Shown: one piece after another, positions 10,704 to 62,134 of the stretch
Numbering within the stretch: the first letter of the stretch is position 1
How the letters are laid out: each line of letters begins with the position of its first letter
DNA from: a virus
Taxonomy: Duplodnaviria > Heunggongvirae > Uroviricota > Caudoviricetes
Length of the DNA stretch: 64,000 nt
Virus record (IMG/VR): IMGVR_UViG_3300044678_002996
Location: 17,301-81,300 of that record
Reading direction: 5' to 3' (one strand)
Position numbers and translations under genes: made by a program
Notes under the pieces: model-generated
Database searches by the model: none
Told to the model about the DNA's origin: nothing
What the model saw: the letters and a program-made list of their open reading frames with translations, nothing else

Positions 10704-11366
10704 TCATTTTAGAAACTCCAGTATTTGGTCTGATGGGCAGTATAGTACAGATTGTGTCGCAGCGGCCCCAGAGGATTGGACCCCCACTAACTTATCGTTG
10801 TAGAGTACAGCTCCGCCGCTTAGTCCGTCAATAACTTTGCCCTTTAATTTAAGGCACGGAAATCCATTTTCCTTGGTAATGACTTCTTTGTAATTTGGGT
10901 TAGTCATCTCATTCTTAATCATATCTTCAGACAGGGCATACCCATATGAGATATAACCCCGCTCTGCCAGAACAGCAAATTGGGCTAACTCCAAGAATCT
11001 AATATTCTCTTGAGGTTTTTCTGGAAAGTCAAGAATCATTATGTCTCGCTCTGAGTCAAATTTGGTGACTTGCAGCTTATATCTTGCGGACAAGTGTTTG
11101 TCAATGCTGTAGATTGAGCAATTAACTTCTTCTACTTTCTCGGAACCTAAGAGGGCATGCCAACAGGTTATTACTCTAAGTTTTTCAGAATGCTTAATAA
11201 CTGTGCCCGAGAACATTTCTATTCCTGCGGATTTCTCCACAGACAGCTTTACGTGGGGCCAGAAATCTTGAGCAAAAGATTGGGAGGCTAAAAGTAAAAC
11301 AAGCAGTAATGTCCTAATAATCATATCTTGCTTCCTAGTGGTTCTGGGATTGGGCAGTGCCCCCAT
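10704..11366 (-). CDS. secreted trypsin-like (S1) serine protease
   Basis: Signal peptide IIRTLLLVLLLASQSFA. His-motif TCWHAL. Ser-motif GLSGGAV (GDSGGP-like). Confidence 0.6.
   Translation of the reverse strand: MGALPNPRTTRKQDMIIRTLLLVLLLASQSFAQDFWPHVKLSVEKSAGIEMFSGTVIKHSEKLRVITCWHALLGSEKVEEVNCSIYSIDKHLSARYKLQVTKFDSERDIMILDFPEKPQENIRFLELAQFAVLAERGYISYGYALSEDMIKNEMTNPNYKEVITKENGFPCLKLKGKVIDGLSGGAVLYNDKLVGVQSSGAAATQSVLYCPSDQILEFLK
11086..11100 (-). repeat. co-oriented motif copy (TTGCGGACAAGTGT variant)
   Basis: Member of the T-run + GCGGACAATTGT family. Lies inside the protease gene and reads HLSAR in frame. Confidence 0.4.
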
Positions 11367-11541
11367 AGCATATCGTCGAAGACAGGGTGATCAATCGATA
11401 AGTAGCCCTCGTTAGTGTCTATGGTAAGCTCTGTTTCGTGGTCATGTGTACCTACATGATAAATTATAGGGGCCTTTTCAAGACTTTCCGTAGCCCAATA
11501 GTGTCCAGATCTAGTCGGCTTGTTTTTGGTGTATACTTGTA

Positions 11542-12132
11542 TCATTCTAATTCCCCTCTGTTTTTCCTATACCATTCTACATCATCATGGCCTTTACGCG
11601 CCATCATGTAATCATAAACTTCGTCTTCACTCCAGATTCCGAACCGCCCGCGTATTCTTAAATACGACTCGGGGGCTACGTCTAACATTCTTCGGTCGGC
11701 CCAAATGGAATCCCAATACTGGGATCGTTGGTCGTGCAAATGTCCGTGCAAGTGAAATGACCCGTAGTGAGAACTGGGCCATGCCATATGTGGATAGTGG
11801 CTCATCCAGCATTGTTGGTCTTTTACTTTTCCTGCGTATGTGTGGCGGAACTTATCACCGAATACGGTCTTACACGCTGCATCTGATGGACAATGATTCC
11901 CTTTAATTAGCCAAACATTTTTAGCTTTTATCATTTGTCTGTACCTTGATAAGTCAGATATATCTCCTAGGCAAAAATCTCCTAAAATATAAAGCTCGTC
12001 ACTGCGTTTTGTCGATGTGTTAATTATATCAATCAATGTGATTTCCCATTCTTTTAGAGAAAATCCTTTTCTCTCTGGGAAATTTACAGACTTTTCATGA
12101 TTAAAGTGTAGGTCTGCTGTAAAGTATTTCAT
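11542..12132 (-). CDS. calcineurin-like metallophosphoesterase (phage Ser/Thr phosphatase-like)
   Basis: Motifs DLHFNHE, ILGDFCLGD and GNHC. Confidence 0.7.
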   Translation of the reverse strand: MKYFTADLHFNHEKSVNFPERKGFSLKEWEITLIDIINTSTKRSDELYILGDFCLGDISDLSRYRQMIKAKNVWLIKGNHCPSDAACKTVFGDKFRHTYAGKVKDQQCWMSHYPHMAWPSSHYGSFHLHGHLHDQRSQYWDSIWADRRMLDVAPESYLRIRGRFGIWSEDEVYDYMMARKGHDDVEWYRKNRGELE

Positions 12133-12166
12133 ACAATATTTTCTTAAATAGTTAATAAATTTTAGA

Positions 12167-12183
12167 TTTTGGTGTAATATAGC
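12167..12183 (+). promoter_or_regulatory. conserved TTTTGGTGTAATATA motif upstream of the LAGLIDADG homing endonuclease gene
   Basis: One of three near-identical copies: 12167 (TTTTGGTGTAATATA), 13813 and 27597 (TTTAGTGTAATATA). Each lies 12-48 nt upstream of a plus-strand start codon. Confidence 0.35.
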
Positions 12184-12194
12184 TTGGAGGGATC

Positions 12195-12902
12195 ATGCGT
12201 TCCATAAAACACAGAAAGATTAAAATGCGAAGAGAATTAGTGTACTTACTTGGATATTTTTATGCAGATGGTTATTTGTCGGGTAAAAAATATAAATATC
12301 CTATTTTAGAAATGATCAGATCAGATTCTGAAAATATCATATACTGTTTAGAAAAAATTAATTCCAGATTTACAGTAAGCTATAGATTTAGAAAAAATAG
12401 TAAAAACGAACAAGCGTGCATAAGGCTATCGTCATCTGATGAAAATATTGATCTTTTCAAGAATGTATTGATGGATAAAGTAAATATGTCAAGAATCTTA
12501 AATTTTATCAACAGTGATAATTTTTGTTATTTTTTACGCGGGTTTTTTGACGGTGATGGATGTATTAATATTAGTAAAAACAAAAGTAAAGGGCGAATGT
12601 ATTTTTATGGTTCGTTTGAACAAAGGTGGGAATTGGTTTTTGATATTTTAAAAAAGCTAGAAATCAAATATACTTTTCAACAAATTGTCAGAAAAAATGG
12701 ATCGCACAAAAGCACGCATATTTGTATATCTAACAAGCATGGTATAAATCTTTTGTACGAATACATTTATCCAAATAGAGTTTATGATTTTGGCCTTTTA
12801 AGAAAGTATGAAAAACTGAATTCTATCAAAGGTAATATTAAACATAAGCATATTGTCACACATACAGATTCGCAGATTGCCAGTAAAATAAAAACTTATT
12901 AA
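12195..12902 (+). CDS. LAGLIDADG homing endonuclease (two-motif, free-standing)
   Basis: Two LAGLIDADG motifs, LLGYFYADGYL and LRGFFDGDGCI. AT-rich. Opposite strand to the flanking genes. Confidence 0.8.
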   Translation: MRSIKHRKIKMRRELVYLLGYFYADGYLSGKKYKYPILEMIRSDSENIIYCLEKINSRFTVSYRFRKNSKNEQACIRLSSSDENIDLFKNVLMDKVNMSRILNFINSDNFCYFLRGFFDGDGCINISKNKSKGRMYFYGSFEQRWELVFDILKKLEIKYTFQQIVRKNGSHKSTHICISNKHGINLLYEYIYPNRVYDFGLLRKYEKLNSIKGNIKHKHIVTHTDSQIASKIKTY

Positions 12903-12903
12903 G

Positions 12904-17014: not shown

Positions 17015-17297
17015 CCTAAGCACTCTTCAATCTTTATTGGTTGACAAGAAAGTTCAAGTAGACGAAGGGGTTTATCTTTGTTCTGATGCCAGCACAATTA
17101 AAACTGTGATGACAGTTAATGATGAGAAAGAGATCGTCATAGAATTTGACGCTCCCTTTACTTATCTACACGTAGAAAAGATCGGCCCGAAGAGGTTGCT
17201 TAATCTTGTAAAGCCTCGCGTTGAAGTTATCACTATTTCAGACACATCCATAAAAGTTAAGCTAAGCTCACTTGGCGAGTGGGAGTTTGAAAGATGA
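17004..17297 (+). CDS. hypothetical protein
   Basis: 97 aa, overlaps the upstream gene by 11 nt. Confidence 0.45.
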   Translation: MEFSLSTLQSLLVDKKVQVDEGVYLCSDASTIKTVMTVNDEKEIVIEFDAPFTYLHVEKIGPKRLLNLVKPRVEVITISDTSIKVKLSSLGEWEFER

Positions 17298-17587
17298 TAA
17301 CATACGAACAGTATCTGGCAGAGTGTACTAGCAATGATACACTGCTATTTACCGGCAAGAGAAATAAAAAGAATAAGCCAATCAAAGAGAAGAGATTCAA
17401 CCAGACTCGTGATTTTATCGGCAAAGAAATTGCTAATAGTAATTACTCTACCAGAGAAGAAGCAGAGTCTGATCTCGAAATTAAAATACAGAAGATGGAT
17501 CCAGTAACTTTTTTCCTTTTTAGAGTCCTGATAGGATGGTTAATAGGAAAATTGTTAGATGGATATTTCGGCCTAAGAGACCAATAA
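17294..17587 (+). CDS. hypothetical protein with C-terminal hydrophobic helix
   Basis: 97 aa, 4-nt overlap coupling. Confidence 0.45.
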   Translation: MITYEQYLAECTSNDTLLFTGKRNKKNKPIKEKRFNQTRDFIGKEIANSNYSTREEAESDLEIKIQKMDPVTFFLFRVLIGWLIGKLLDGYFGLRDQ

Positions 17588-18064
17588 GTCAAGGCTATTT
17601 ATAATTCGGTCGACGTCCACTCTTTCGAAGGACGGGCTTTTTTGAAGCTCGTCCTTATTTTTTTTGCCCAATACGAAATCAGTAAGTTCATTAAGAATGT
17701 CATCGGAAAAATGACCAAGGTACGATAAAAGCTCTTGTTCGGCTTCATTTTTTGGTTCATAGCTAAGCCCGTATGCGTGCTCTAAAGGCACCTCTGTCTC
17801 TGAATAGTATCGCTGATCTTCTATCATTCTTTTTAGGGCGTTAGATAAAGACTTCTTGACAAAGAAGAAAATATTTCCACGCTTAGGGTCAAACTTTTCT
17901 ACACATCGCCCAATCGTGATGTATAATTCGGACTTAATTTCGTCATAAGATAGATGCTTGTAGAACGCTCGCGGGACGAGTCTCATCTGCCCACTAATAA
18001 ATCCATAATTTTTAGCGAGCGACTCAAATGTTGGGGTTTCATTTCTGTTCATACAATTCTCCAT
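17573..18064 (-). CDS. small sigma factor (sigma-70 region 2-like; phage late sigma, gp55-like candidate)
   Basis: ITIGRCVEKFDPKRGNIFFFVKK resembles the sigma-70 region 2.1-2.2 signature GxxGLxxAvEKFDPxRGxxFstYA. Confidence 0.5.
   Translation of the reverse strand: MENCMNRNETPTFESLAKNYGFISGQMRLVPRAFYKHLSYDEIKSELYITIGRCVEKFDPKRGNIFFFVKKSLSNALKRMIEDQRYYSETEVPLEHAYGLSYEPKNEAEQELLSYLGHFSDDILNELTDFVLGKKNKDELQKSPSFERVDVDRIINSLDLLVS
17619..17660 (+). terminator. putative intrinsic terminator at the convergent junction
   Basis: Stem CGTCC...GGACG followed by GGCTTTTTTG, immediately after the last plus-strand gene. Confidence 0.4.
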
Positions 18065-18965: not shown

Positions 18966-19218
18966 CTAAAAATTCCTTTGGATGTAGTAATGTATAATAC
19001 ACTGAGATTTCGGGCCATATCGAGAAATCTACAAGTTTTATTGGGAAATAAGTAAGAGATCCGCCAGCGTGTTTCAGCATATCTTTTAATATTTCGTCAA
19101 CATCGCCTTGATTCTCTGGCTCAGATATTGTGAACTTGGGCAATTGACCATCTTTTAATAGGATTGAGATGGCCCCAGAGTTGTCTATAGCTTTAACTAT
19201 CATCTTCACATTCATCAT
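18868..19218 (-). CDS. hypothetical protein
   Basis: 116-aa ORF overlapping its neighbour. Confidence 0.35.
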   Translation of the reverse strand: MMNVKMIVKAIDNSGAISILLKDGQLPKFTISEPENQGDVDEILKDMLKHAGGSLTYFPIKLVDFSIWPEISVYYTLLHPKEFLDEKPNYKLANINSSFSAQDGVAIRKAFSVPYY

Positions 19219-20284
19219 CTTGATCCTCCTCTAGTATACTTATCATAGTACTAGCAGCGTGTCCCCAAGTAAATTTCTTAGCCATATTTTCTGCTGGTGC
19301 CGATAATATTTTTCCACTCTTGTAGTCTTCTAGCACAGTCCACATAGCAGAAATCAAGTCATCCTCTGAGTAGCTACACCATTCGCCACAGTTTGTGGGC
19401 GAGTCTTCTCTAAACCACATATTATCTACGGCGGGCACTAAGCCAGTCGGCTCTAGTAGATGGGTGGTTTCTTTATTTGTGAACTCGGTATGCCCGCTGT
19501 AATTCGTGGCTATTGAGAACTTTCCACAGCCCATAGCTTCGAGTAGTGGAAGATTCCAGCCTTCGGCGAGTGAAGGGGCGACGAAGCAGTATGACTGTTG
19601 TACAATTCTAGCTAAATCAAATGGGGATTCCACTCGCCCGATTATTTTAAGGCGATCGCCCAAGAGATCTTTGTACGCTTTCTTTTTCTGGTCAACAAAG
19701 TCTTTTATAAATTTGTTGTCGCAACTTAACCACAGTTCCACATTATCTTGTTCAGCAAACGCTTTGTGAAACGCCAGTACTATTTGGTCTTGTTGTTTTC
19801 TTACTTCCCACTTGCCAATAGATAGGAACACGCATTTGGGTGGCATGTATTTGTGCGGCGTGAACACATCATTATTGTATCCTGCGTTACAAATGCGTAT
19901 TGGTGTGTTTACTCCATTTTGCCTATATACTTCCGCCTGCCATTCGGTCGGCACGATTACCATTTCAAGTGAATTAAGGTGATTCTTTTCTATGGGGGTC
20001 AGTCGATTGAGTTCAGAGAATGTGTAACCGTATCTCTTGCCTAACCCAATACCTATAGCCATATCAAATTGGTGGGCAATTCTTAATGATGGGGCACAGA
20101 TATCAAACATTGGGGCGATGTCGAGCTTTTTGCGGACTAATGCATTGAACTCTCCGCAATCTCCCTGAGGTGATGAGTGGAGGTTAATGGCGGAGCAATA
20201 TCTGTCCATCTGTTTAAGAAGGTTCAGAGTTACTAACCCGTAGCTAGTTTGATTAGTGATATATCCAGTTAGGTTTATTTCCAT
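19193..20284 (-). CDS. glycosyltransferase, GT4 (GT-B, group 1) family
   Basis: C-terminal SLAEGWNLPLLEAMGCGKFSIATN matches the GT4 E-x7-E region. Confidence 0.7.
   Translation of the reverse strand: MEINLTGYITNQTSYGLVTLNLLKQMDRYCSAINLHSSPQGDCGEFNALVRKKLDIAPMFDICAPSLRIAHQFDMAIGIGLGKRYGYTFSELNRLTPIEKNHLNSLEMVIVPTEWQAEVYRQNGVNTPIRICNAGYNNDVFTPHKYMPPKCVFLSIGKWEVRKQQDQIVLAFHKAFAEQDNVELWLSCDNKFIKDFVDQKKKAYKDLLGDRLKIIGRVESPFDLARIVQQSYCFVAPSLAEGWNLPLLEAMGCGKFSIATNYSGHTEFTNKETTHLLEPTGLVPAVDNMWFREDSPTNCGEWCSYSEDDLISAMWTVLEDYKSGKILSAPAENMAKKFTWGHAASTMISILEEDQDDECEDDS
20135..20152 (-). repeat. co-oriented motif copy (TTTTTGCGGACTAATG variant)
   Basis: Inside the GT4 gene. Confidence 0.35.
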
Positions 20285-20300
20285 TTTTCCTCCAATAAAA

Positions 20301-20335
20301 AACTCCGGCTATTTCTAGCCGGAGTTCGTTCGTTA
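20301..20335 (-). terminator. intrinsic terminator (minus strand)
   Basis: 11-bp stem AACTCCGGCTA/TAGCCGGAGTT with loop TTTC, followed on the minus strand by TTTTTTATT. Confidence 0.6.
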
Positions 20336-20338
20336 AAA

Positions 20339-27496: not shown

Positions 27497-27516
27497 TGTT
27501 TCGCGGACAATTGTAA
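27497..27516 (-). repeat. co-oriented motif copy TTTCGCGGACAATTGT (intergenic, about 44 nt upstream of the start at 27459)
   Basis: Exact GCGGACAATTGT core. Confidence 0.45.
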
Positions 27517-32905: not shown

Positions 32906-33545
32906 TTAAGAACCTTTTCCCTGCGGTATTGTAGAAGCTATGGAAGGCGAAACTTTTGTAAGTGGACAAATCGTCGTAATCGTGTGGGCACTCTGGTATG
33001 GAGTGTTCCACACAGAATTCTCGGGCTAACATGACTGGAGCGAACTTTATACCCACTTCAGACATCCAATGGTAACAATATACACAAGCGTAAAAATCTT
33101 CAGCGTCAAGATCTTTGATGCCAGTTTTGCTGTAAGGCAACATCGCTGTGGCCTCTAAAAATTTACGACTACGCAAAGAGACCCCACCGTTACCCACTCT
33201 GTTAACCCATTGGTTGGGCCAAGGAGCCCCAGCGTAATCGTATTTAAGCAAATCGCTATTCCACATCGCCCCGTTGATTATACAAGAATCATACTGAATT
33301 GTCATTACGTAGTCATGTTCAACATACTTACGTAATTCTTGTAGCATAAACTTAGAATAATCTTGGTAGTCGAATTCAGCAACTACTGTGGTGAACTCAT
33401 GCTGGACATCGTCGGCTACTTTTTGCGGACAAATGATCTTAACATCAGAGAGACCCCACATACTGCGGATCGATTTCCTAATCGCAAGTAATGTCCCTTC
33501 CATAAATTCCGTGTCGGCTACGACAGCTACTAATTCAATCTTCAT
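32883..33545 (-). CDS. hypothetical protein
   Basis: 220-aa ORF. Confidence 0.4.
   Translation of the reverse strand: MKIELVAVVADTEFMEGTLLAIRKSIRSMWGLSDVKIICPQKVADDVQHEFTTVVAEFDYQDYSKFMLQELRKYVEHDYVMTIQYDSCIINGAMWNSDLLKYDYAGAPWPNQWVNRVGNGGVSLRSRKFLEATAMLPYSKTGIKDLDAEDFYACVYCYHWMSEVGIKFAPVMLAREFCVEHSIPECPHDYDDLSTYKSFAFHSFYNTAGKRFLNAGLQNE
33419..33436 (-). repeat. co-oriented motif copy TTTTTGCGGACAAATG
   Basis: Inside the gene 32883..33545. Confidence 0.4.
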
Positions 33546-47690: not shown

Positions 47691-48448
47691 ACCCGTCCCT
47701 TTCGAGTGTAAATCTGTTGGTAATGACCCAAAAGGGCCCCTAACCCTTGTGAGAATATTCCATGACTTACATAAAGGATCAGCTTATTGGGACCGCAGTG
47801 GGCGACTGCTTTCGCCACCTCGATGAATGTACGTCCTCCGTCGCACAGGTCGTCGCATACGAGAATGTTTTTCCCAAAAGGTATGTTGGGTACGATAGTC
47901 TCAAGAATATGTCCAGTAGCCTCGTCGCGTATTTTCTCTGCGACGATGAATTCTTTGGCGGACAATTGTGAGTATCTCGCCGCCGCCCCTTTGTCGGGCA
48001 ATAGCAGAAGGTCAATTCCCTCGCGTTCGACAATGTCCGCAATATTCTGTTGTGGCAGTGTGTTCACCAACTTAATATTGCGGTATTGGTCGAAGAACGC
48101 AGGATTGTGGACGTCGAACGTATGAAGTTCACATTTGCCCATCATCTCAGCAAAGAAATGTAGAGCCCAGCAAGATGTGTTTACAATACCTTTATCCTGC
48201 CTCGCGTAAGGAAGATATGGGACGTCCCAGATAACTAGCTGGTTGGCGGGTTCCTTTATCTTCATCCTTTCTACGAAGTAGAGCAGTTGGAAGATGTGCA
48301 GCAACTCATACTCGTCCTCAAATTCCCAGTGAATTCGCAGTACGTCTTCCTTAAAGGCATTTAGTAGCCCTTCGGGCTGTTTCCAGACTTGAGATGTCTT
48401 ATCTGGAAATCTTGTAACGTTCAGAGTAAATCCGTTTATATGTATCAT
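47678..48448 (-). CDS. type I phosphoribosyltransferase-fold protein, PRPP-synthetase-like (Prs/Adps-like)
   Basis: PRPP-binding loop ILVCDDLCDGGRTF. Length 256 aa. Adjacent to nadV. Confidence 0.55.
   Translation of the reverse strand: MIHINGFTLNVTRFPDKTSQVWKQPEGLLNAFKEDVLRIHWEFEDEYELLHIFQLLYFVERMKIKEPANQLVIWDVPYLPYARQDKGIVNTSCWALHFFAEMMGKCELHTFDVHNPAFFDQYRNIKLVNTLPQQNIADIVEREGIDLLLLPDKGAAARYSQLSAKEFIVAEKIRDEATGHILETIVPNIPFGKNILVCDDLCDGGRTFIEVAKAVAHCGPNKLILYVSHGIFSQGLGALLGHYQQIYTRKGRVWNT
47951..47969 (-). repeat. co-oriented motif copy TTTGGCGGACAATTGT
   Basis: Inside the Prs-like gene. Encodes QLSAKEF. Confidence 0.45.
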
Positions 48449-50837: not shown

Positions 50838-51181
50838 TCCTCCTCGTTATTCACAACATTTACAAAAGGATTTCCGTGACTCATAGCCGCGTGATATCCG
50901 AGCGTGTAGGATGAGTTGGTAGAGTTAGTCATACCGTCACGTACGCCATCCTCGTATGTTTTTCTGGCGGACAATTGTACGAGATCACTCTGGAAGTCAG
51001 CAACCTGTTCTTCCAGAATTTGGGCGTTGAGCTTCATAGCCTCAATTTGGGCCGCTGTCGCCACCCTTTGACTTTCGGCATTAGATGAAGCCACAATTGC
51101 CCAATGGGCCGGTGCCACTGTGACAATGTGAACAGGGACAGTAATGAAACAGAAACACAATGCAAGTTTAACAAACTTCAT
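50834..51181 (-). CDS. secreted/membrane hypothetical protein
   Basis: Signal-like N-terminus MKFVKLALCFCFITVPVHIVTVAPA. Confidence 0.4.
   Translation of the reverse strand: MKFVKLALCFCFITVPVHIVTVAPAHWAIVASSNAESQRVATAAQIEAMKLNAQILEEQVADFQSDLVQLSARKTYEDGVRDGMTNSTNSSYTLGYHAAMSHGNPFVNVVNNEEE
50961..50979 (-). repeat. co-oriented motif copy TTTTCTGGCGGACAATTGT
   Basis: Inside the gene 50834..51181. Encodes QLSARKT. Confidence 0.45.
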
Positions 51182-51193
51182 CTTAAATCGCCC

Positions 51194-53866: not shown

Positions 53867-54141
53867 AGCTTACAAACGACTGTTCTCTTGTGTGCCTGAA
53901 ACATATTCTGGCAAATACAACACTGATTCCAATAATTGCCATTCTCATGGGAGAAGTCTTCAGGCCAATTTCTTGAGAGCACTTCCCCATTGATAATCAG
54001 AATGGACATCGCTGGGAATTCCTCAATAGGTGGGACTTCATTGAGGATCGTTAGATGGCTGTATTCGGCGATCACTTCTTTTGCGGACAAACGCCTGATG
54101 TAAGGGGCATCATTATGTCGAATAATACAGATCACGGGCAC
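53839..54141 (-). CDS. hypothetical protein with C-terminal CxxC pairs
   Basis: 100 aa with CCICQN...CKLC. Confidence 0.35.
   Translation of the reverse strand: MPVICIIRHNDAPYIRRLSAKEVIAEYSHLTILNEVPPIEEFPAMSILIINGEVLSRNWPEDFSHENGNYWNQCCICQNMFQAHKRTVVCKLCTVERGSA
54078..54092 (-). repeat. co-oriented motif copy TTTTGCGGACAAACG
   Basis: Inside the gene 53839..54141. Encodes RLSAKEV. Confidence 0.4.
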
Positions 54142-55082: not shown

Positions 55083-55095
55083 TATGTTTGTCCTG

Positions 55096-55470
55096 TTATT
55101 CTAAATACAGAATTCTAAGCTTAAGAATAGAACAGAGGGCGTTTAATTCACTGACTGTTTTGGGCGTCATTGATTGGGGTAACACGCCAATAGGCGTTAT
55201 TCTCACCTCAGACCAATCATTGATTATTATGCATCCCTCATCGCTAACGGCGTAAACCAAACACTTTGAGGGGATAGCTTCCATCACACCCCGTGAAGTA
55301 TTTTGCCATTCAGCATTTGGGAAAAGCTTAAGGTAGTCGGGGAAAACTTCGCATTGGCAATCTTCTTTTTTGATTTTCCCTGTGCCTTTGCACAATGTGC
55401 ATTTATGGCGAACCCACATTCTTATTACCCCACTCAGCGGGAACCGCTGGAATATCATTGATTGGGACAA
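55096..55470 (-). CDS. hypothetical Cys-rich protein
   Basis: 124 aa with CTLCKGTG...CQC. Confidence 0.35.
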   Translation of the reverse strand: MSQSMIFQRFPLSGVIRMWVRHKCTLCKGTGKIKKEDCQCEVFPDYLKLFPNAEWQNTSRGVMEAIPSKCLVYAVSDEGCIIINDWSEVRITPIGVLPQSMTPKTVSELNALCSILKLRILYLE

Positions 55471-57055
55471 ACTTTAGCGGCTCGCTCCCAAATTTTACGT
55501 GAATCTTAGGTAAACAAGACTTCACAAAATTGAGGCTTTCAACTGGATTGAAGCTTACGTATCCAATACCAGCTAACAAACTTGAAGCCACAACATATCG
55601 GGCGGATTTTTTAGCAGCGTCGAGCATGTTCTCGATAGGCTCGGCAATCCAATATGATAACATCGATTTCTTGGGAATCGCGGAAGTAGTGAAAGCATCA
55701 CTTGCCAGCACATAGTCTTCGGTGATTTTGGGCGGGGCTGGTGTCTGGGCCGTAGGCCTTTTGATTTGCGCCAATGCTACTTCCTCAGGGATTTCTTTGT
55801 ACAATGCGTCGTGATATTTACACCAACTGGCGTCTGACAACACTTCCGTGCCATCGTATTTTGTTAGGACATGGGCGAACTCACTTGTTCGTTTGACAAA
55901 TGCCCAATCCTTACCGTTTAGTGGAGCGTAGTATTTCGGATACACTTCCTTTTTAGGAGCAGGCACTTGGGCCACCGGCTTATTAATCCGCCCCAAGGCA
56001 ACTTCTTCAGTTAATTCGATATCGCCAATAGATTTATCCCGTGAAATCCAATGAAACTCATGGCTTTCCTTTCCATTATGGCTAACCAGACGATGTTTGG
56101 TTTCGCTGACCCTTTTACGGAATGCGTAATCATTTTTATTTGGACCAGACATTTCGTAGTATTTTGGATACTTCTCTTCTTTTGAAGCTTCGCTGATCTT
56201 AGAGATGATGTAATAAGCGGAACTCTGATAATCAGATTCAGCTTGACGGGCATGACCATCAATTCCAATAAACCATTCGCCCGTTTTAGGCATTCTGTAT
56301 TCTGGTGTAACAGAGGCGAACTTGAAACCTGCTGGCAATGATGGCATCTTACTTTCTTCCTTTTCAATGATTATACGAATAAGAGTTTTGGATTCATCCT
56401 TGTCTACTTGTATGGCATCGCCACTAAAACAAGACATATACCAATCACCCTTTTTGGGTGGACGGGCTTGTGGGAATCCTCCTGCGTAACGGAATCCCTT
56501 TGGGGCAGGTTTAAGTTTGAAAAACTCTTCTACAATTCTTAATTTTTCGTCCCATTCAGTCCCAATCCTCAACGTGCCATCTGGTAAGTACATCCAACCA
56601 TAATGCAGGAAATTACCTTGTCTATTATGATTTTTGGGCGACGACAACACTTGTTGTATTGTTTGTCTGCTGTCATTAAACCCCGGAGAGCATTCAATTG
56701 TGGCGAAATATTCCTTGCAATGGTGATTTGCCGCAGTAATGTGAACGACGTAACCACCAGCGGTAAGGTAGGTCTTTCCTACTTCTAATTTGATCATTTT
56801 GACCGATGATGGGGCATGAAACCGCTCGACAAGATACTGCTGATTCGCGCCAATGTCGTTTGTAATTTCAACCCACGCCTTGCTATCCGAAAGAACTATA
56901 TAACTCTTGCCGATTGTTATACTGAGATTACCATTTTCGTTTTCCTTACAAACAGCCACATCACCTTTGTTGAACATCTGAATCTCCGTGTTTTGGGGAC
57001 AATTGTATGGGCTACCCACGTAGTTTAATCTCTCTGCTCGCCTCCATAGCCGCAA
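55403..57055 (-). CDS. large hypothetical protein with internal tandem repeats of about 65 aa
   Basis: Repeats YPKYY...AF(R/V)KR(V/T)SE..H.L...G.E...W...ALG(R/Q)I(N/K)(K/R)P.AQ.PAP. Confidence 0.5.
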   Translation of the reverse strand: MRLWRRAERLNYVGSPYNCPQNTEIQMFNKGDVAVCKENENGNLSITIGKSYIVLSDSKAWVEITNDIGANQQYLVERFHAPSSVKMIKLEVGKTYLTAGGYVVHITAANHHCKEYFATIECSPGFNDSRQTIQQVLSSPKNHNRQGNFLHYGWMYLPDGTLRIGTEWDEKLRIVEEFFKLKPAPKGFRYAGGFPQARPPKKGDWYMSCFSGDAIQVDKDESKTLIRIIIEKEESKMPSLPAGFKFASVTPEYRMPKTGEWFIGIDGHARQAESDYQSSAYYIISKISEASKEEKYPKYYEMSGPNKNDYAFRKRVSETKHRLVSHNGKESHEFHWISRDKSIGDIELTEEVALGRINKPVAQVPAPKKEVYPKYYAPLNGKDWAFVKRTSEFAHVLTKYDGTEVLSDASWCKYHDALYKEIPEEVALAQIKRPTAQTPAPPKITEDYVLASDAFTTSAIPKKSMLSYWIAEPIENMLDAAKKSARYVVASSLLAGIGYVSFNPVESLNFVKSCLPKIHVKFGSEPLKFVPINDIPAVPAEWGNKNVGSP

Positions 57056-57266
57056 CAGCCATGATAAGGGTTTTATTGTCAGGGCTTAAAATGCTCCATA
57101 TCAAATCTGGGTCAGATGCCCCAGAGCCTGCCGTCGCCCTTATGTCTACTAGGACATCCATAGGTTGAACAGCTAGCGGCCTATCTCTCAACATAAGAGA
57201 GGCCGACGCAAACCCCAACTCTTCCGCTCGTTCTTGAAATTCTGGGTGATCCATTTGATTCCTCAT
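57012..57266 (-). CDS. hypothetical protein
   Basis: 84-aa ORF. Confidence 0.3.
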   Translation of the reverse strand: MRNQMDHPEFQERAEELGFASASLMLRDRPLAVQPMDVLVDIRATAGSGASDPDLIWSILSPDNKTLIMAVAAMEASREIKLRG

Positions 57267-57273
57267 AAGAAAA

Positions 57274-57358
57274 TGGGCGTGATAGGATTCGAACCTATTA
57301 ACCCCGAAGGGAGAGGATTTACAGTCCCCTGCAGCTCGCCAGCCTCTGCCGCACGCCC
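57274..57358 (-). tRNA. tRNA-Tyr (anticodon GUA), type II with long variable arm
   Basis: Acceptor GGGCGTG/CACGCCC. Anticodon stem GGGGA/TCCTC with loop CTGTAAA. T-arm ATAGG-TTCGAAT-CCTAT. Length 85 nt. Confidence 0.8.
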
Positions 57359-57376
57359 AGCCTAAGCCTTTAGGCT

Positions 57377-57955
57377 TTAGCTCTTCATGATCTCAGGGCT
57401 CTCAATCGTAATCTTCGGCAAGCATGACTTAAACAAGTCCATTGCCTTTTCTGGGTTGTTGTAAGTGTACACGCCACCCACAATCGCCCCTGTCAGTGTG
57501 ACGTAGCGTACCGCCCGCATAATTTTTGTGGCGACCTCAGTCATTGGTTCAAATGCCCAGTAGTTGACTGTACGCCAACCCCACTTACCAGCGAACTTAG
57601 CTACGCCAGTTGCCACTTTAATCGCAGTTGCCTTTTCCATAGTAACCTCTTCTTTCTTGATGAACATAGAAAAGTCCGCCTTACGATCGGCAGACTCAGT
57701 AACAATATCCGCCCTTTTTGGGGCGAACGCCCCTAATAATTTGTGGGCGGCTTCTTCAGTAATCTCGATCCAATCCCCACTCTCAACAAAATGGTCTTTA
57801 TTTCTTGACCATTCTGTTATACACCCGATCTCTCCGTTTTTCTTTACCGCATTAGAAAAACAACCTTTGCGGATTATGTAGGCTGTATCATCGAGCCAGC
57901 CTCTCTTATTCGCGTAATATTTCACCATGTTTTGCCTCTTTTGAAAATTGTTCAA
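57377..57955 (-). CDS. hypothetical protein
   Basis: 192-aa ORF. Confidence 0.45.
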   Translation of the reverse strand: MNNFQKRQNMVKYYANKRGWLDDTAYIIRKGCFSNAVKKNGEIGCITEWSRNKDHFVESGDWIEITEEAAHKLLGAFAPKRADIVTESADRKADFSMFIKKEEVTMEKATAIKVATGVAKFAGKWGWRTVNYWAFEPMTEVATKIMRAVRYVTLTGAIVGGVYTYNNPEKAMDLFKSCLPKITIESPEIMKS

Positions 57956-58106
57956 TCAATTTGGTTTCTTCTTCTTCTCTCTTCTTCAATTCTTCTTCAT
58001 TCATAGACTTTGCTAAAAGTGGAATAAACAAAGAAAGCAAAACGCCTATTATGATTAAAAGACAGAAGATTATGATTGAATTGAAGAGTGTTTGAAGAAA
58101 TCCCAT
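57906..58106 (-). CDS. small membrane protein
   Basis: 66 aa with TM helix IIIFCLLIIIGVLLSLFIPLLA. Confidence 0.35.
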   Translation of the reverse strand: MGFLQTLFNSIIIFCLLIIIGVLLSLFIPLLAKSMNEEELKKREEEETKLIEQFSKEAKHGEILRE

Positions 58107-58108
58107 AA

Positions 58109-58136
58109 GTGGACCCGGCGGGAATTGAACCCGCGT
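58109..58136 (-). other. tRNA 3'-half fragment (T-arm + 3' acceptor strand) lacking a 5' partner
   Basis: GCGGG-TTCAATT-CCCGC followed by CGGGTCCA. No matching 5' acceptor strand within tRNA distance. Confidence 0.3.
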
Positions 58137-58341
58137 CTTGCATAAAAAAGAGCAATAGATTCGTTCACAAGTTTAGGGGCGAACGCCCCGGTTCAAGTGG
58201 ATATTACAGAACGTCCTCAATTTGGATAACAGGGCAATGAGGGGCCCCGAGACTATGCAGCCTGAGCAAAAGTTTTTGCTTTTATTTTTTAATCGACTTT
58301 TAAAGTGGCCGGTCGATCAACCACTACCTGCATCTATTACA

Positions 58342-58746
58342 CTATTTACCAATCAATACCTGTCGGGCCCGTGGTGGCACTTTGTCTGCCTTTTCAAGAT
58401 TACATAATTCACATAACACTTGTCTATTATCTGAAGAGTCTTTCCCTTCTCTTGCTATAGGAATTATATGGTCAACTGTCATAGCGACCAAATCTGCGGA
58501 GACTATCATAATACTCGGAAGAGACTTGTTAGTTCGTGGTTTGCCCACAAATATATAGTCGCCTCTACGAGGGCAATAAGAACATTTAGCCCCCATATTG
58601 ACCACCTGTTTGATTCTCCTTAATTTCCTTCCAAGTGATAGTTCACGAAATACTGCGATATCAAACGGGATTATTCTGTAATCAGAATATTTGATTAACA
58701 GATCAATTTCGGAAGAAAATAGGTTGTCGATACAAGTATTGTCCAT
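58342..58746 (-). CDS. HNH endonuclease
   Basis: CSYCPRRG...VDHIIPIAREGKDSSDNRQVLCELCN (HNH with Zn-ligand cysteines). Confidence 0.7.
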   Translation of the reverse strand: MDNTCIDNLFSSEIDLLIKYSDYRIIPFDIAVFRELSLGRKLRRIKQVVNMGAKCSYCPRRGDYIFVGKPRTNKSLPSIMIVSADLVAMTVDHIIPIAREGKDSSDNRQVLCELCNLEKADKVPPRARQVLIGK

Positions 58747-58748
58747 CT

Positions 58749-59204
58749 CTATTTCCTGAAGTGATTACGCCTTAAGGACATCAAACATTCACCCAACAAG
58801 TTTGTGCCCCACTTTGCTTTGTTCGCGAGGGCATCTTTGGCGGCGAACCCAATACCCAAAATTTTATCTGTGGGCGACGCTTCTACTAGGACTTCATCTT
58901 TCTTGAACGACTCTTCGAGGGCAACCCGGAACTCTTCACACGCACTGAACTTAATCTCAAGGGCAAACATCATTGAGGGGATCTTGAGGTCATCCCATTT
59001 CTCTTCTGAGAAGTTTCTGACCGATCGCCCTGCGTTCTTCGCGTCACGCGGAGTTGGGGCAACTCTTATGTTTTGGAGTGCCACTATGTCGTGGAATGCA
59101 GCCCCTTTGAGGGCCATAAAGATTTTCTCAGAAGTGAAAGCCTCGTTACCATTGATAGGGTGAAAGTTTGAGAAAACTCCGCCCCAGAAGAATTTGTAGT
59201 TCAT
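58749..59204 (-). CDS. NADAR/YbiA-like (DUF1768) domain protein
   Basis: FFWGGVFSNFHP...FTSEKIFMALKG matches the NADAR N-terminal signature. Confidence 0.6.
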   Translation of the reverse strand: MNYKFFWGGVFSNFHPINGNEAFTSEKIFMALKGAAFHDIVALQNIRVAPTPRDAKNAGRSVRNFSEEKWDDLKIPSMMFALEIKFSACEEFRVALEESFKKDEVLVEASPTDKILGIGFAAKDALANKAKWGTNLLGECLMSLRRNHFRK

Positions 59205-59548
59205 TTTTCCGCCGATATTAGGTAGTCTGTAAATGAGTCTGCATACTTAATTCTGTAAGACTCATTTGTGTTTATGGTGTTCCACACTTCCTCACTACAC
59301 GATAAGGTAAGTGTTTTGCCGCCTTTGCATTCAAAAACGGCCATAAACTCAGTCCGCTGGTTGGCCCCGATTTTGGTATATACCTTTGTGCATACGCCCT
59401 CACTTTGTGTTTGATTTCCAAGCCCCAGTGGCCCTAACGCGGGTACTAATAGGGCTATTAGAATACAAGTTATGCCGATTACTACGAGCACCTCAACGAG
59501 AGTAAAGCCGCGTCTAGTCATTCTCAATTGCTCCGGCGAAGGCATCAC
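59201..59548 (-). CDS. type IV prepilin/pseudopilin-like protein
   Basis: Class III signal RRG|FTLVEVLVVIGITCILIALLVPA (G-FTLxE plus a hydrophobic helix). Confidence 0.55.
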   Translation of the reverse strand: MMPSPEQLRMTRRGFTLVEVLVVIGITCILIALLVPALGPLGLGNQTQSEGVCTKVYTKIGANQRTEFMAVFECKGGKTLTLSCSEEVWNTINTNESYRIKYADSFTDYLISAEK

Positions 59549-59747
59549 TTACTCCGTCCTTGTAGAAATTACATAATTCCTTGAATTCCTTCTTGATATC
59601 ATAATCATTTTCGGATAGCACCCAGTCTACAATGATTGTTGGTGTTCCAATAAAAATGACTATCAGTGTGAGTAGTATAATCTCACCGATTGCTCGACAT
59701 GATTTACCCGGAATGTTAAACAAGAACCTCATTGCTTTTTTCATCAT
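59514..59747 (-). CDS. small membrane protein
   Basis: 77 aa with TM IGEIILLTLIVIFIG. Confidence 0.35.
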   Translation of the reverse strand: MMKKAMRFLFNIPGKSCRAIGEIILLTLIVIFIGTPTIIVDWVLSENDYDIKKEFKELCNFYKDGVSDAFAGAIEND

Positions 59748-59753
59748 AATGCA

Positions 59754-60029
59754 TTATTCCTCGTTTTGTTTTTGCGGACAATTGTCAACATCCTCAATGG
59801 ACGTAACGACTGAAGTGGCGAGCAGGCGATAGTCGGCCCATTCGTTGATTTTATCCGTTAGGATCTCGATACGCTGGCCCACCTTAATTACAACTGGGTG
59901 TGTATTTTGGATACTACCCTTGTTTGTGCGGATTTTGCCGGACTCAGTAGAGGTTTCTACTCGTTCCCAAGTTTTAGCAACGAGGTCTATGAGATAGACA
60001 GACCCACTTTCGGTAGTTACTCGTTTCAT
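59754..60029 (-). CDS. hypothetical protein
   Basis: 91-aa ORF. Confidence 0.35.
   Translation of the reverse strand: MKRVTTESGSVYLIDLVAKTWERVETSTESGKIRTNKGSIQNTHPVVIKVGQRIEILTDKINEWADYRLLATSVVTSIEDVDNCPQKQNEE
59768..59786 (-). repeat. co-oriented motif copy TTTTTGCGGACAATTGT (intergenic, about 20 nt upstream of the start at 59747)
   Basis: Exact core, followed on the mRNA strand by GAGGA and ATGATG. Confidence 0.45.
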
Positions 60030-60040
60030 TGATCAAACTT

Positions 60041-60556
60041 CTAGCTGTATAGCTCAAAGATATCAAGGGCCAGATTTCTCAGCTCTTGTTCAAGCTCCAC
60101 GTCAACTCCAGTAAGACACTCGTCTAACAGAAGAATAGATTCCTTGGCGTAGACAATAGCGAATCCGTCGCTTTCGGGCATTTCGTAGAGGTTATCAATT
60201 CGGTCGATTAGCTTAACAAGCTTTGATTCCGTCCGAATACCCTTGATTTTTTCCCGATTAGCTTTCTTTCGTTCAGCCCGATTGCCTTTGACATCTTTGT
60301 CGTTAGTGAGGTCTTCTACATATCCCTCTACTATGTGCCCAAAACAGAGGGCGATTTCAGACAGTTTTACACCGCAGTCTTCTACAACATCATGCAGAAA
60401 GGCCGCTGCTACCAATTGATTTGTAGCCATCCCATGAGTAGCTACGCGGCCCGCGACGCGAATCGGGTGTGTAATGTAGGGCCTGTTACTGTATTTACGC
60501 TTTTGCCCTTTGTGTTTTTCGGCGGCAAATTGGGCTGCATCAATGATTAATTCCAT
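60041..60556 (-). CDS. HD-domain small alarmone hydrolase ((p)ppGpp hydrolase, SpoT/Mesh1-like)
   Basis: AEKHKGQKRKYSNRPYITHPIRVA...AAAFLHDVVED matches the RelA/SpoT HD hydrolase N-terminus (HxGQxR...PYIxHP...HDxxED). Confidence 0.65.
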   Translation of the reverse strand: MELIIDAAQFAAEKHKGQKRKYSNRPYITHPIRVAGRVATHGMATNQLVAAAFLHDVVEDCGVKLSEIALCFGHIVEGYVEDLTNDKDVKGNRAERKKANREKIKGIRTESKLVKLIDRIDNLYEMPESDGFAIVYAKESILLLDECLTGVDVELEQELRNLALDIFELYS

Positions 60557-60557
60557 T

Positions 60558-60746
60558 TCAACCCCACACTAAAGCACAAATGGCAAACACTATGAACGCC
60601 ATTGATATGACGAATTTGATAAGGCCAGAGAGGCCAGAGATTCCTACGTCTCCGTTATCATCAGCTACGCCGACAATAAACAATAGAATTCCAAGACAGG
60701 CGTTCATTATCCAGAAAATCAGCGAGAGTATTACGAAAGCTTTCAT
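60558..60746 (-). CDS. small membrane protein
   Basis: 62 aa, two TM helices. Confidence 0.35.
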   Translation of the reverse strand: MKAFVILSLIFWIMNACLGILLFIVGVADDNGDVGISGLSGLIKFVISMAFIVFAICALVWG

Positions 60747-60778
60747 ACCAACTCCTTAAATCATTGGACGAAGTCCCA

Positions 60779-60849
60779 AAGGGCGGGAAGGATTCGAACC
60801 TTCGCTACTGGAATCAAAATCCAGTGTGCTACCGTTACACCACCGCCCT
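60779..60849 (-). tRNA. tRNA-Gln (anticodon UUG)
   Basis: Acceptor AGGGCGG/CCGCCCT. Anticodon stem CTGGA/TCCAG with loop TTTTGAT. T-arm GAAGG-TTCGAAT-CCTTC. Confidence 0.8.
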
Positions 60850-60860
60850 ACGTAGCTAAG

Positions 60861-61328
60861 CTACTTTATGAATTCCTGAATTTGGGGTCGATCTGCTCGC
60901 CCCCAGATTGCCATACAAAACGGAATAGACGGATACGATCTCCACCATACGATCAGGGCTGGATCAATTGGGGCCTTAGGGGCAGTCTGAATTGCCCACT
61001 CACTCTCTTTGTAAAGAATAGCCATACCCACCGCTTTGGCTTTATTGGTCTGATCGTTAACCATTTCCCGTACCCTTTGGGGCAGAATTGGAAATGATTT
61101 TGGAGTTGCCCGCTCTATTTTGTTTGGGAGTGACCGCCCAACCCGTATTTCTATGTTGTCAGAGCTATAACTGTGTATAGAAGGAACAACATAGGTGCCG
61201 CTCTGACGAATATATGACCGCTCCAAACGATCGTGCGGCGAAGCTAAGGCCAGATTGGCATCCCGTCTTTGTCTCGGGCAGATAGCAGTAGCCCCAAATC
61301 GATTTGTTGGCTTCTCGCAAGAATCCAA
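60861..61328 (-). CDS. hypothetical protein
   Basis: 155-aa ORF. Confidence 0.4.
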   Translation of the reverse strand: MDSCEKPTNRFGATAICPRQRRDANLALASPHDRLERSYIRQSGTYVVPSIHSYSSDNIEIRVGRSLPNKIERATPKSFPILPQRVREMVNDQTNKAKAVGMAILYKESEWAIQTAPKAPIDPALIVWWRSYPSIPFCMAIWGRADRPQIQEFIK

Positions 61329-61525
61329 CTCAGATCTTCTTGTGATTCGCGTGATTTATCCAAGACATTAGCGTAATCACATTCTGCTGATGTTCCCTGT
61401 CTTAGGGTTTTGATATATTCCTTATCCACTGGCTCGCTGGATTTTATTTGGCATTCCATCAGGGCATTGCCGATTGGATCGTTGTTAACAGCTACTGGAG
61501 CAGGCTTTTTCCATAGTCCGAACAT
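61244..61525 (-). CDS. hypothetical protein
   Basis: 93-aa ORF overlapping its neighbour. Confidence 0.3.
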   Translation of the reverse strand: MFGLWKKPAPVAVNNDPIGNALMECQIKSSEPVDKEYIKTLRQGTSAECDYANVLDKSRESQEDLSWILARSQQIDLGLLLSARDKDGMPIWP

Positions 61526-61686
61526 TAGAAGTCCTCACAAATTTACTTGCAAAAGTTATCACGTGGGATTTCAATCATGGTGTCACAGTTATATCATCAT
61601 AATGTTTGTGAGACTCGATTTTAAGAGTTCGCCCGTCTTTTAGGCGGATGACTAAAGTTCTGTACTCACTCACTGGAACAAATAAA

Positions 61687-61759
61687 TGGTGCCGCTGAGA
61701 CTTGAACTCAGGTCTTCGGATTTAAAAGATCCGTGTAATAGCCACTATACTACGACACC
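61687..61759 (-). tRNA. tRNA-Lys (anticodon UUU)
   Basis: Acceptor GGTGTCG/CGGCACC. Anticodon stem CGGAT/ATCCG with loop CTTTTAA. T-arm CTGAG-TTCAAGT-CTCAG. Confidence 0.8.
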
Positions 61760-61867
61760 GAAGCAGGCTTTCGCCTGCCAGATTTATCGCCAATAACGGA
61801 TGTAAAGCATAGCTTAACTCCTTTTACTTAGAGGCTTTGTGGCATTGTTATTTCGTTCGCAAACTGA

Positions 61868-62134
61868 TTATTTAGCTTGCTCTTTATTTTCTCCGCCACT
61901 ATACCAAGGAATCCAATTCATACGTTCCTTAGTGCGTTGCGTAGCTTCAGCCTCTGTGATCTTGGTACGCTCAATTTCTGTTTGAGCATTGATTTGGGCT
62001 TGTGTTTCCGCTTGCTTAACAGAAACTTCTGCCGTCACTTCGGCATTTTTGATGGCAATATCCTTGTTGATGTAGGCCACGCCCACAGCAGCGGCGGACA
62101 CGATCAGAACCACTAACACAGTTTTTGCGGACAA
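61868..62134 (-). CDS. small membrane protein (TTG start inside the GCGGACAATTGT motif)
   Basis: 88 aa with N-terminal TM MSAKTVLVVLIVSAAAVGVAY. Confidence 0.4.
   Translation of the reverse strand: MSAKTVLVVLIVSAAAVGVAYINKDIAIKNAEVTAEVSVKQAETQAQINAQTEIERTKITEAEATQRTKERMNWIPWYSGGENKEQAK
62112..62128 (-). repeat. co-oriented motif copy TTTTTGCGGACAATTGT overlapping a gene start
   Basis: Exact core. The TTG of the core is the predicted start of 61868..62134 (MSAKT...). Confidence 0.45.

Follow-up and report, generated by a model that had tools for sequence, protein, structure and literature searches.

In T5 and BF23, in the phiKMV-like phages and in Pseudomonas phage tf, localized nicks in the phage DNA follow a consensus that lies on a single strand, at positions that are conserved in relatives and with a frequency that varies from site to site; these nicks are denser in the half of the genome that is thought to be packaged first (PMC3517423). 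The consensus is CGACxxxxxCCTA/CTCCGG in the phiKMV-like phages and TACT/RTGMC in phage tf, which carries 14 nicks (PMC3517423, PMC3604761), and in LUZ19 the sole repeated intergenic motif is promoter-like, yet it marks nicks and is unrelated to transcript levels (PMC3604761). Here, we describe a repeated motif in a 64,000-nucleotide (nt) stretch of a tailed-phage genome (IMG/VR record IMGVR_UViG_3300044678_002996, positions 17,301 to 81,300), referred to as the window, which is part of a 108,868-bp contig (Joint Genome Institute (JGI) taxon 3300059473; GCA_041442895.1) and to which all motif counts refer. The motif is a real, conserved and strand-specific DNA signal of a novel freshwater phage clade, and we consider, with a probability of about 0.4, that it marks sites at which the backbone of the phage DNA is interrupted (nicked or cut), possibly on both strands. 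It resembles the nick sites of the T5, phiKMV and tf groups in being a short one-strand consensus with several copies, conserved positions and a higher density in one genome half, and the sites of phiKMV and LUZ19, which are intergenic, were likewise first taken for promoters. It differs from them in that the interruption is deduced here from assembly ends, and in that breaks are suggested on both strands, ~13 nt apart, rather than as a ligatable nick in one strand. In addition, the tf and T5 consensus sequences are shorter than the present motif (12-16 nt), and those phages are unrelated to this large (at least 108 kb) uncultured freshwater phage.

Read on the gene strand (minus), the motif is the 16-nt sequence ACAATTGTCCGC[A/C/G]AAA, of which 11 copies are found on the minus strand and 0 on the plus strand. 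Six copies are strong and five are degenerate, the latter retaining only (T)GTCCGC and the A-run. Syntenic contigs of relatives were found via homologues of a phosphoribosyl-pyrophosphate (PRPP)-synthetase-like protein (47678-48448), which is 83% identical in contig L039, 82% in L040/L041 and 77% in L042/L043, the nucleotide identity of these contigs to the window being 71-88%; L044-L046 represent a more distant clade, in which this protein is 49% identical. The copies in the window are as follows.

62123..62138, minus strand: strong copy ACAATTGTCCGCAAAA in the last codons of an 87-amino-acid (aa) gene (N-C-P-Q-K frame), directly before the start of an 83-aa membrane-protein gene; read through in Logan contig L048.
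59770..59785, minus strand: strong copy ACAATTGTCCGCAAAA in the last codons, at the 3′ end, of a 91-aa gene (N-C-P-Q-K frame), with 19 nt from GTCCGC to the next ATG; contigs L050 and L051 start inside it.
56991..57006, minus strand: strong copy ACAATTGTCCCCAAAA, intergenic, with 17 nt from GTCCCC to the ATG (56977) of a 524-aa gene; site of the break between contigs L052 and L047.
54079..54094, minus strand: degenerate copy GCGTTTGTCCGCAAAA at codons 13-18 (I-R-R-L-S-A-K) of a 98-aa gene; kept in L039, and L040 starts at the GTCCGC of the matching copy.
50963..50978, minus strand: strong copy ACAATTGTCCGCCAGA inside a 115-aa gene (Q-L-S-A-R); kept in L039 and L040, with ACAACTG in L042, and L041 starts at the matching copy.
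47954..47969, minus strand: strong copy ACAATTGTCCGCCAAA inside the PRPP-synthetase-like gene (Q-L-S-A-K); L044 keeps CACAATTGTCCGC; site of the break between contigs L047 and L010.
44447..44462, minus strand: degenerate copy TCAAATGTCCGCAAAA, intergenic, between the stop codon TAA of a 128-aa gene and the ATG of the next gene, its A-run merging into an AAGGA ribosome site; kept in L039, L040 and L042.
33421..33436, minus strand: degenerate copy TCATTTGTCCGCAAAA inside a DUF5672 gene (frame I-C-P-Q-K).
27499..27514, minus strand: strong copy ACAATTGTCCGCGAAA, intergenic, 43 nt before an ATG at 27459, with a plus-strand HNH-like gene (27655-28458) just upstream.
20128..20143, minus strand: degenerate copy GCATTAGTCCGCAAAA inside a glycosyltransferase gene (frame A-L-V-R-K); identical in the relative L033, as are its flanks.
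11082..11097, minus strand: degenerate and weakest copy ACACTTGTCCGCAAGA inside a trypsin-like gene (H-L-S-A-R); L033 reads ACACCTGTCCGCGAAA, with 3 of the 16 positions changed.

The plus-strand 12-mer GCGGACAATTGT has 7 matches with at most one mismatch, all in a single orientation, against 0.29 in dinucleotide-preserving shuffles, and the exact 12-mer is present in 5 copies only. Among all 10-12-mers of the window, fragments of the motif show the strongest over-representation, being present 5-6 times on one strand and never on the other. In a weight-matrix scan, the 11 minus-strand sites score at least 23.8, the next best site 16.7 and the top plus-strand site 13.4; this matrix was built from the sites themselves and is therefore circular for them, and the copies were also found by listing each GTCCGC with its context. 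An earlier note, made from the letters of this DNA, had reported at least 10 copies in one orientation. All ten exist, the listed coordinates being those at which the T-run begins (for the copy listed at 62112, the core is 62127-62138), the copy at 56991-57006 had been overlooked, which brings the total to 11, and the single orientation holds in the scan of the window (11 minus, 0 plus), so that equality of the strands is not seen. Nearly all genes of the window lie on the minus strand; co-orientation of the motif is thus co-orientation with transcription. No stop codon occurs in any of its three frames.

Evidence that lay beyond the reach of the original sequence-only reading comes from contig ends inside the motif. 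When termini are counted only where they are true record ends, 8 of the 35 termini of the clade fall inside the motif, which makes up ~0.5% of the sequence. In Logan run SRR27430807, the contigs of which are 99.99-100% identical to the window, L052 (window 58317-56992) ends with ...CATACAATTGTCCCCAAA, L047 (window 57004-47955) starts with AATTGTCCCCAAA and ends with ...CTCACAATTGTCCGCCAA, and a 68-kb contig sampled as L010 starts with AATTGTCCGCCAA at 47967. The geometry at copies 56991 and 47954 is the same: the right contig begins at AC^AATTG (AATTGTCC) and the left contig stops 13 nt farther, giving overlaps of 13 nt between L052 and L047 at the former copy and between L047 and L010 at the latter. 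Neighbouring contigs of the Logan k=31 graph normally overlap by 30 nt. An overlap of 13 in place of 30 nt implies either that 17 spanning 31-mers are absent or that the graph was cut at branches on both sides of the 13-nt core. Elsewhere, L050 (JGI 3300044858) starts at 59785, at the ACAATTGTCCGC of copy 59770, L051 (SRR27426701) starts at 59780, at the TGTCCGC of the same copy, L040 (SRR25018318) starts at the GTCCGC of the copy matching 54079, and L041 (SRR25018358) starts 11 nt before the AATTG of the copy matching 50963. All six contig starts in the motif are the upstream end in gene orientation. The source is a co-assembly of 471 shotgun DNA metagenomes from Lake Mendota, for which 0.2-um filters, FastDNA bead-beating, TruSeq libraries and NovaSeq sequencing were used (PMC11374980; bioRxiv 10.1101/2022.08.04.502869), and a coincidence of a motif with assembly breakpoints in such DNA data is unexpected.

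An interruption of the DNA would account for these ends if a localized nick were made in the gene-sense strand between the C and the A of AC^AATTGTCCGC, possibly with a second break in the opposite strand, ~13 nt away inside the T-run. Since end repair leaves only 5′ ends unaltered, the sharp start of the right contig implies a sense-strand 5′ end at AC^AATTG, and the repeated end of the left contig implies an opposite-strand 5′ end in the T-run. Nicked or doubly nicked DNA would break during bead-beating and shearing, leaving few or no fragments that span the site; the interruption would presumably be made by a phage-encoded nuclease, with a cutting frequency that differs between copies. Staggered nicks in a pair would suffice, as would nicks that lie in different molecules. 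The 13-nt overlap, seen at two copies in one run, is more readily explained by 5′ ends on both strands than by one nick.

Several observations weigh against this interpretation. The DNA ends themselves are read from assembly behaviour only, and a nick in one strand predicts one sharp and one ragged end, not a repeated 13-nt overlap. Run SRR27430807 reads through copies 62123, 59770, 54079, 50963 and 27499 and through all copies in the 68-kb contig, and the strength of the break does not track similarity to the consensus, since both perfect-consensus copies (62123 and 59770) are among those read through. Contig starts in the other samples are ragged, at -2, +3, +4 and -11 relative to the AATTG start. 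A third break of the same run, 58317/58298, lies inside a transfer-messenger RNA (tmRNA) gene that has no motif, with a 20-nt overlap and at the same base in a second run, which shows that some breaks have other causes. That the Logan runs belong to the DNA series is probable, given their 99.99-100% identity and the dating of their accessions; no paper in the literature lists these run accessions. In addition, 5 of the 11 copies here and 6 of the 9 in L044 are located 13-50 nt upstream of start codons, as a promoter would be, and no nickase can be named.

The motif-free break falls in the first of the following two genes, in the region of the first pseudoknot.

58107-58370, minus strand: phage tmRNA with the tag AKTFAQAA (Rfam, 71.5 bits).
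58342-58746, minus strand: HNH endonuclease gene, overlapping the 5′ end of the tmRNA.

The block that comprises both genes (58116-58756) is missing from L039. Another end without the motif is that of L048 (SRR27430807), which shows six clustered differences to the window at 62946-62966 and starts at 63002 in a 147-nt intergenic region; its start, AATTCGCC, is loosely similar to the AATTGTCC with which contigs start at the motif breaks. The spot probably varies between strains, and the breaks at 58317/58298 and 63002 probably have causes other than the motif. The ends of L036 and L037, small contigs of different runs, are only a few bases apart (window ~17296-17340, minus reading) and come just after ACACTCCGCAAGATAC, which resembles the weak copy ACACTTGTCCGCAAGATA (11082-11097) without its TG.

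A number of other origins of the motif ends were rejected. If islands of identity with co-occurring relatives were the cause, variant bases would have to lie at exactly -18 and +30 at both sites, and the identical boundaries of the two sites would be coincidental; relatives of ~80% identity share 20-61 exact stretches of at least 31 nt per 15-20 kb, of which only 0-2 hold the motif, and the 9-kb and 68-kb contigs would have been broken up elsewhere by a relative of this kind. Chimeras that fold back at the palindrome ACAATTGT predict ends at -2 and +5, and a tandem duplication variant predicts an end at +13. A restriction-digested or Hi-C library does not fit, as each strand carries CAATTG 38 times, with read-through at the other sites. 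For cutting of the Cas12 type the distances are wrong, and a likeness to DnaA boxes (TTGTCCGCA compared with TTATCCACA) and T7-primase sites (GTC) do not fit the ends seen. Ends of transcripts in a metatranscriptome are unlikely, the source series being DNA. What is left over is an excess of fixed-end fragments, or a lack of spanning fragments, on both sides of the 13-bp core.

Recombination offers a different source of such ends. Homologous recombination between copies was rejected because, by our reasoning, it would break at -2 and +7 and not at 0 and +12, and the same reasoning counts against a broader proposal, which we regard as unlikely, that the motif is the target of a mobile element or of site-specific recombination. 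In that case, insertions present in part of the population would occupy some copies, flanked by a duplication of the 13-bp core; the graph would branch at both edges of the core, and the co-oriented array would show where cassettes meet in a plastic early region. The geometry of the breaks, with one shared sequence that ends at +12 and another that starts at 0, would result from a 13-bp target-site duplication in a mixed population, homing-type HNH genes adjoin copy 27499 and lie upstream of copy 56991, the 44-64 kb region holds many small genes, tRNAs and the tmRNA+HNH insertion missing from L039, and there is strain variation near 62946-62966. However, the boundaries of insertions and deletions in relatives do not lie at motif copies (tmRNA+HNH, 58116-58756; the L040 deletion across 39142-35988), two independent insertions would be needed in one sample, no inserted sequence is seen, and the retention of an intragenic copy down to 49% protein identity is left unexplained. 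Cassettes named PeSL (promoter-early plus stem-loop repeats) are reported to mediate the shuffling of genes in T4-type phages (Arbiol et al. 2010). The present motif resembles them as a repeated, co-oriented, regulatory-looking element at cassette boundaries among small accessory genes, and differs from them in lacking a stem-loop and in that the relatives' indel boundaries are not at the motif.

Were the data RNA, the overlapping ends would look like the footprint of a protein that blocks an exonuclease, and the motif might then be an element of RNA 5′ leaders that is bound by a protein (a processing site, a stabiliser or a translational operator), the contig breaks being coincidental. Its co-orientation with transcription, its frequent place in leaders beside ribosome sites and the fact that the conserved part must be transcribed in copies 44447 and 56991 agree with such an element. 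The assemblies are DNA metagenomes, however, the copies show no evident conserved secondary structure and no match to an Rfam family, and the contig ends would have no explanation; we judge this very improbable.

The apparent geometry of the ends is that of cosN of phage lambda, where staggered nicks 12 nt apart leave 5′ overhangs, so that after end repair both fragments carry the same 12-13 nt. A lambda-type cos site was nevertheless rejected: the same end geometry is found at two copies in one run, and ends in the motif are found at other copies in other samples. The lambda cos is unique per genome, whereas the number of copies concerned here is at least two, which lie 9 kb apart, and may be as high as eleven; most copies are read through in the same sample. 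A special form of the interruption, with pairs of staggered nicks on either side of the 13-bp core (AC^AATTGTCCGCAAA^A) at several sites of one orientation, spaced by about 3 kb near one end, is conceivable as a speculative extension that we do not expect to hold. Such an array may act as a 'multi-cos', at which packaging or ejection could cut or pause at alternative sites. Alternatively, the sense nick may fall at ~-11/-10 of a promoter, which would leave the relaxed DNA pre-melted for transcription after injection.

Wherever a closer relative covers the copies at 56991, 54079, 50963, 47954 and 44447, it has them at the corresponding positions. Over seven sites, 7 of 112 motif columns vary (6%), compared with 137 of 662 flanking columns (21%; Fisher P = 1e-4), and the varying motif positions are those that are already degenerate, such as the third base of an Ala codon. 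In the more distant L044, CACAATTGTCCGC persists inside the PRPP-synthetase-like gene, the neighbouring DNA being essentially unalignable, and the (Q/H)-L-S-A residues are limited to this subfamily of PRPP-synthetase-like proteins. L044 has nine candidate copies, on the gene strand, with the consensus CATTTGTCCGC[A/C]AA; six of the nine are intergenic, with 15-135 nt from GTCCGC to the next start codon (~50 nt or less in five of these). The earlier note had placed the palindrome ACAATTGT within the core, but the weak copies and L044 keep (T)TGTCCGC and an A-rich sequence instead. The conserved heart is therefore TGTCCGC followed by A-rich sequence and not the palindrome, which argues against a symmetric dimer site. 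Among the functions that the earlier note had listed, the promoter and the nicking or cleavage site survive, and the binding site of a dimeric protein does not fare well. Copy 11082..11097 is probably free of selection on the motif, its conservation being no better than that of the flanks.

A shared reading frame had also been claimed, with six of seven coding copies encoding L-S-A-(K/R). Coding frames were judged by six-frame translation, by the gene calls of the source contig and by the substitution pattern in relatives, and the eight coding copies then split 4:3:1 over the three frames (P ~0.3, binomial). The L-S-A-(K/R) frame is used only by the copies starting at 54079, 50963, 47954 and 11082, while those at 62123 and 59770 read N-C-P-Q-K, that at 33421 reads I-C-P-Q-K and that at 20128 reads A-L-V-R-K. 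Three copies (56991, 44447 and 27499), not two, are intergenic. The open reading frames (ORFs) that cover 56991 and 44447 are over-extended; at 44447, the conserved TAA of the upstream gene stands just before the motif and the next conserved ATG follows 13 nt past GTCCGC. The apparent frame bias, together with the premise of MSAK starts, arose from over-extended ORFs and one misread frame, and internal MSAK starts or a translated peptide signal find no support when the frames divide 4:3:1 and three copies are non-coding.

Outside this clade the motif was not found in comparable form. No close relative was detected among annotated phage records (megablast, blastn) or in IMG/VR, and proteins of Bacillus, Serratia and Ackermannviridae phages share only 41-44% identity with a 670-aa DUF8224 protein of the phage. 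In IMG/VR, the exact 16-mer gave nine single matches, which is chance level, a 298-aa protein of the phage gave no match, and neither the relatives of the nicotinamide phosphoribosyltransferase (NAMPT; 43-54% identity) nor 80 relatives of the PRPP-synthetase-like gene (at most 41%) carry the motif. Scans of the JGI metagenome collection returned no match. In 185,579 species genomes, the exact 16-mer gave at least 120 scattered single matches, none of them related to this phage by blastn. Several copies per genome occur in no other IMG/VR relative and in no species genome, and the motif appears in no paper in a relevant context.

With respect to genes, 5 of the 11 copies lie 7-43 nt upstream of a start codon (P ~1e-3, a binomial estimate with ~8% of positions qualifying), so that the motif is enriched at gene junctions. 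Six copies are intragenic, and there is no sign of a terminator-promoter pattern. Any signal that keeps out of coding sequence would, in a compact genome with co-oriented genes, end up just upstream of genes. If the DNA is interrupted at the motif, the preference for junctions may simply reflect the places where a 16-nt constraint would cost least, and a link to transcription starts may exist as well.

This placement is what a promoter would show, and the motif may instead be the core of a phage-specific promoter, the main alternative, which we take seriously but consider doubtful. The promoter would consist of nACAAT as a -10-like element, TGTCCGC as a G+C-rich discriminator and a start in the A-run, with leaders of 13-50 nt; it would be served by a polymerase encoded outside the window or by the sigma-like factor encoded as follows.

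17573..18064, minus strand: small sigma-70-family-like protein of 159-163 aa, with an FDPKRG match to RpoS region 2 (E = 0.09) and a structural model with a pLDDT (predicted local distance difference test) of 82.

The earlier note had called this gene a sigma factor, and it does look like a small one: the top 50 Foldseek hits are all sigma factors, with weak E-values as for the RpoS region-2 match. The protein may be a candidate reader of the motif, though only under the promoter hypothesis. Under that hypothesis the intragenic copies would be internal promoters, as in T7, and the contigs would break for an unrelated reason. Promoters of the T7 type measure ~20 nt, share one orientation, recur every 2-3 kb and lie partly inside genes. 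The motif shares with these, and with the promoters of phage sigma factors (T4 gp55, SPO1 gp28/gp34, phiEco32 gp36), a contiguous sequence of ~16 nt, co-orientation with genes, a spacing of 2-3 kb, a position partly inside upstream genes and short leaders, and the phage encodes a small sigma-like protein. Support also comes from L044, where six of nine copies are intergenic and directly upstream of genes, from the A-run, whose merging with the Shine-Dalgarno sequence means that the motif is either transcribed or placed at the start site, and from TACAAT/nACAAT, which retains A-11 and T-7 of the -10 hexamer. However, promoters make no DNA ends, and this hypothesis predicts neither contig ends in the motif nor an identical 13-nt geometry at two copies. 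Conservation does not extend upstream of the motif, and hence there is no -35 element and no bipartite -35/-10 structure, although the sigma-like protein appears to have two domains; the weak copies and L044 conserve the -10-like ACAAT least, the conserved core being TGTCCGC. Moreover, the 64-kb window of the 108,868-bp contig contains no RNA polymerase gene, matches to sigma-70-type promoters are not enriched in the region, and near-regular spacing of 3 kb is not expected from operon structure. Interruption and promoter are not mutually exclusive: a transcription start in the A-run would put the breaks at ~-11/-10 and ~+2/+3, at the edges of an open-complex bubble, which may be a numerical coincidence.

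Two further observations concern host-type signals. The sequence GATATAATCT occurs four times on the gene strand and 0 times on the other (window 47650-47665 and three other places); at 47660 it forms an extended -10-like TGATATAAT, and it may mark host-type promoters. The Bacteroidota -7 box (TAnnTTTG) was considered for its likeness to TACATTTG and TACAATTG and rejected, because a Shine-Dalgarno sequence is present at 64% of gene starts compared with 15% of random positions, which argues against a Bacteroidota host.

The motif is not evenly distributed. Seven copies lie in 44447-62138, the region nearest to an end of the contig that is ~1.06 kb past the right end of the window, and their spacing, taken away from that end, is 2353, 2779, 2912, 3116, 3009 and 3507 nt, climbing almost monotonically before it jumps to 11 kb; the farther gaps are 6-11 kb. 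The coefficient of variation of the seven-copy spacing is 0.118, a value that random placement reaches with P = 8e-5, the seven copies having been chosen post hoc. Density thus rises toward one contig end (seven copies in the nearest 18 kb). A Chi-like or uptake-type site of interaction with the host, oriented toward a host enzyme that enters from the nearby genome end, would agree with such a gradient: all copies are oriented for an enzyme of the RecBCD/AddAB type that enters at the right-hand end, where they are densest, and the plus-strand motif contains GCGG, as Firmicute Chi sequences do. With 16 conserved bases (12-16 nt), however, the motif far exceeds known Chi sites (5-8 nt), the exact 16-mer has only scattered single matches in the 185,579 species genomes, with no enriched host, and DNA from both sides of the site is present in one run, unlike degradation up to Chi. 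We give this explanation hardly any weight.

To our knowledge, the function of localized phage nicks has been unexplained since the 1960s, and few cultured phage groups are known to have sequence-directed nicks. If the DNA is indeed interrupted at the motif, such nicks would extend to a lineage of large uncultured freshwater phages and would be detectable in ordinary metagenomes, as contig ends and pile-ups of read ends at a strand-specific motif, which would enable a survey of public data; staggered pairs, if they exist, would offer a testable role for localized phage nicks. Repeated co-oriented intergenic motifs of phages are routinely annotated as promoters, and the DNA-level evidence here points elsewhere, which calls for caution. 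If the motif is a promoter only, it would be an ordinary feature of a new phage.

Several other features of the window were recorded. A cluster on the minus strand (39734-43202) comprises genes for a ThiF/E1-like protein, a JAB-domain protein, a cysteine-rich 298-aa protein and a 220-aa protein; it is kept in all relatives, including L044, and resembles a ubiquitin-like conjugation module. Its first two members are listed here.

39734-40405, minus strand: ThiF/E1-like protein.
40415-41557, minus strand: JAB-domain protein.

An NAD-salvage module (45350-48448, minus strand), which encodes the PRPP-synthetase-like protein, an AAA_33 kinase and the nicotinamide phosphoribosyltransferase, is syntenic across the clade. 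A further minus-strand cluster (19193-33545) encodes glycosyltransferases (GT1, GT2), several S-adenosylmethionine (SAM) methyltransferases, DUF2334, a 4HBT thioesterase and DUF5672, and could modify DNA or surface polysaccharide; if it modifies DNA, this would bear on the behaviour of the DNA in sequencing libraries. Two adjoining tRNA genes and two free-standing homing-endonuclease-like genes were also identified. One of the tRNAs has a four-base anticodon and could be a frameshift-suppressor-like or a degenerate gene.

1386-1459, minus strand: tRNA with a four-base anticodon (ttca) in an eight-membered loop (ARAGORN; only 32 bits with the Rfam tRNA model).
1141-1214: tRNA-Gly, adjoining the ttca tRNA.
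27655-28458, plus strand: HNH-like free-standing homing-endonuclease-like gene with a basic repeat region, directly upstream of copy 27499-27514 and on the strand opposite to its neighbours.
12195-12902, plus strand: LAGLIDADG-like free-standing homing-endonuclease-like gene.

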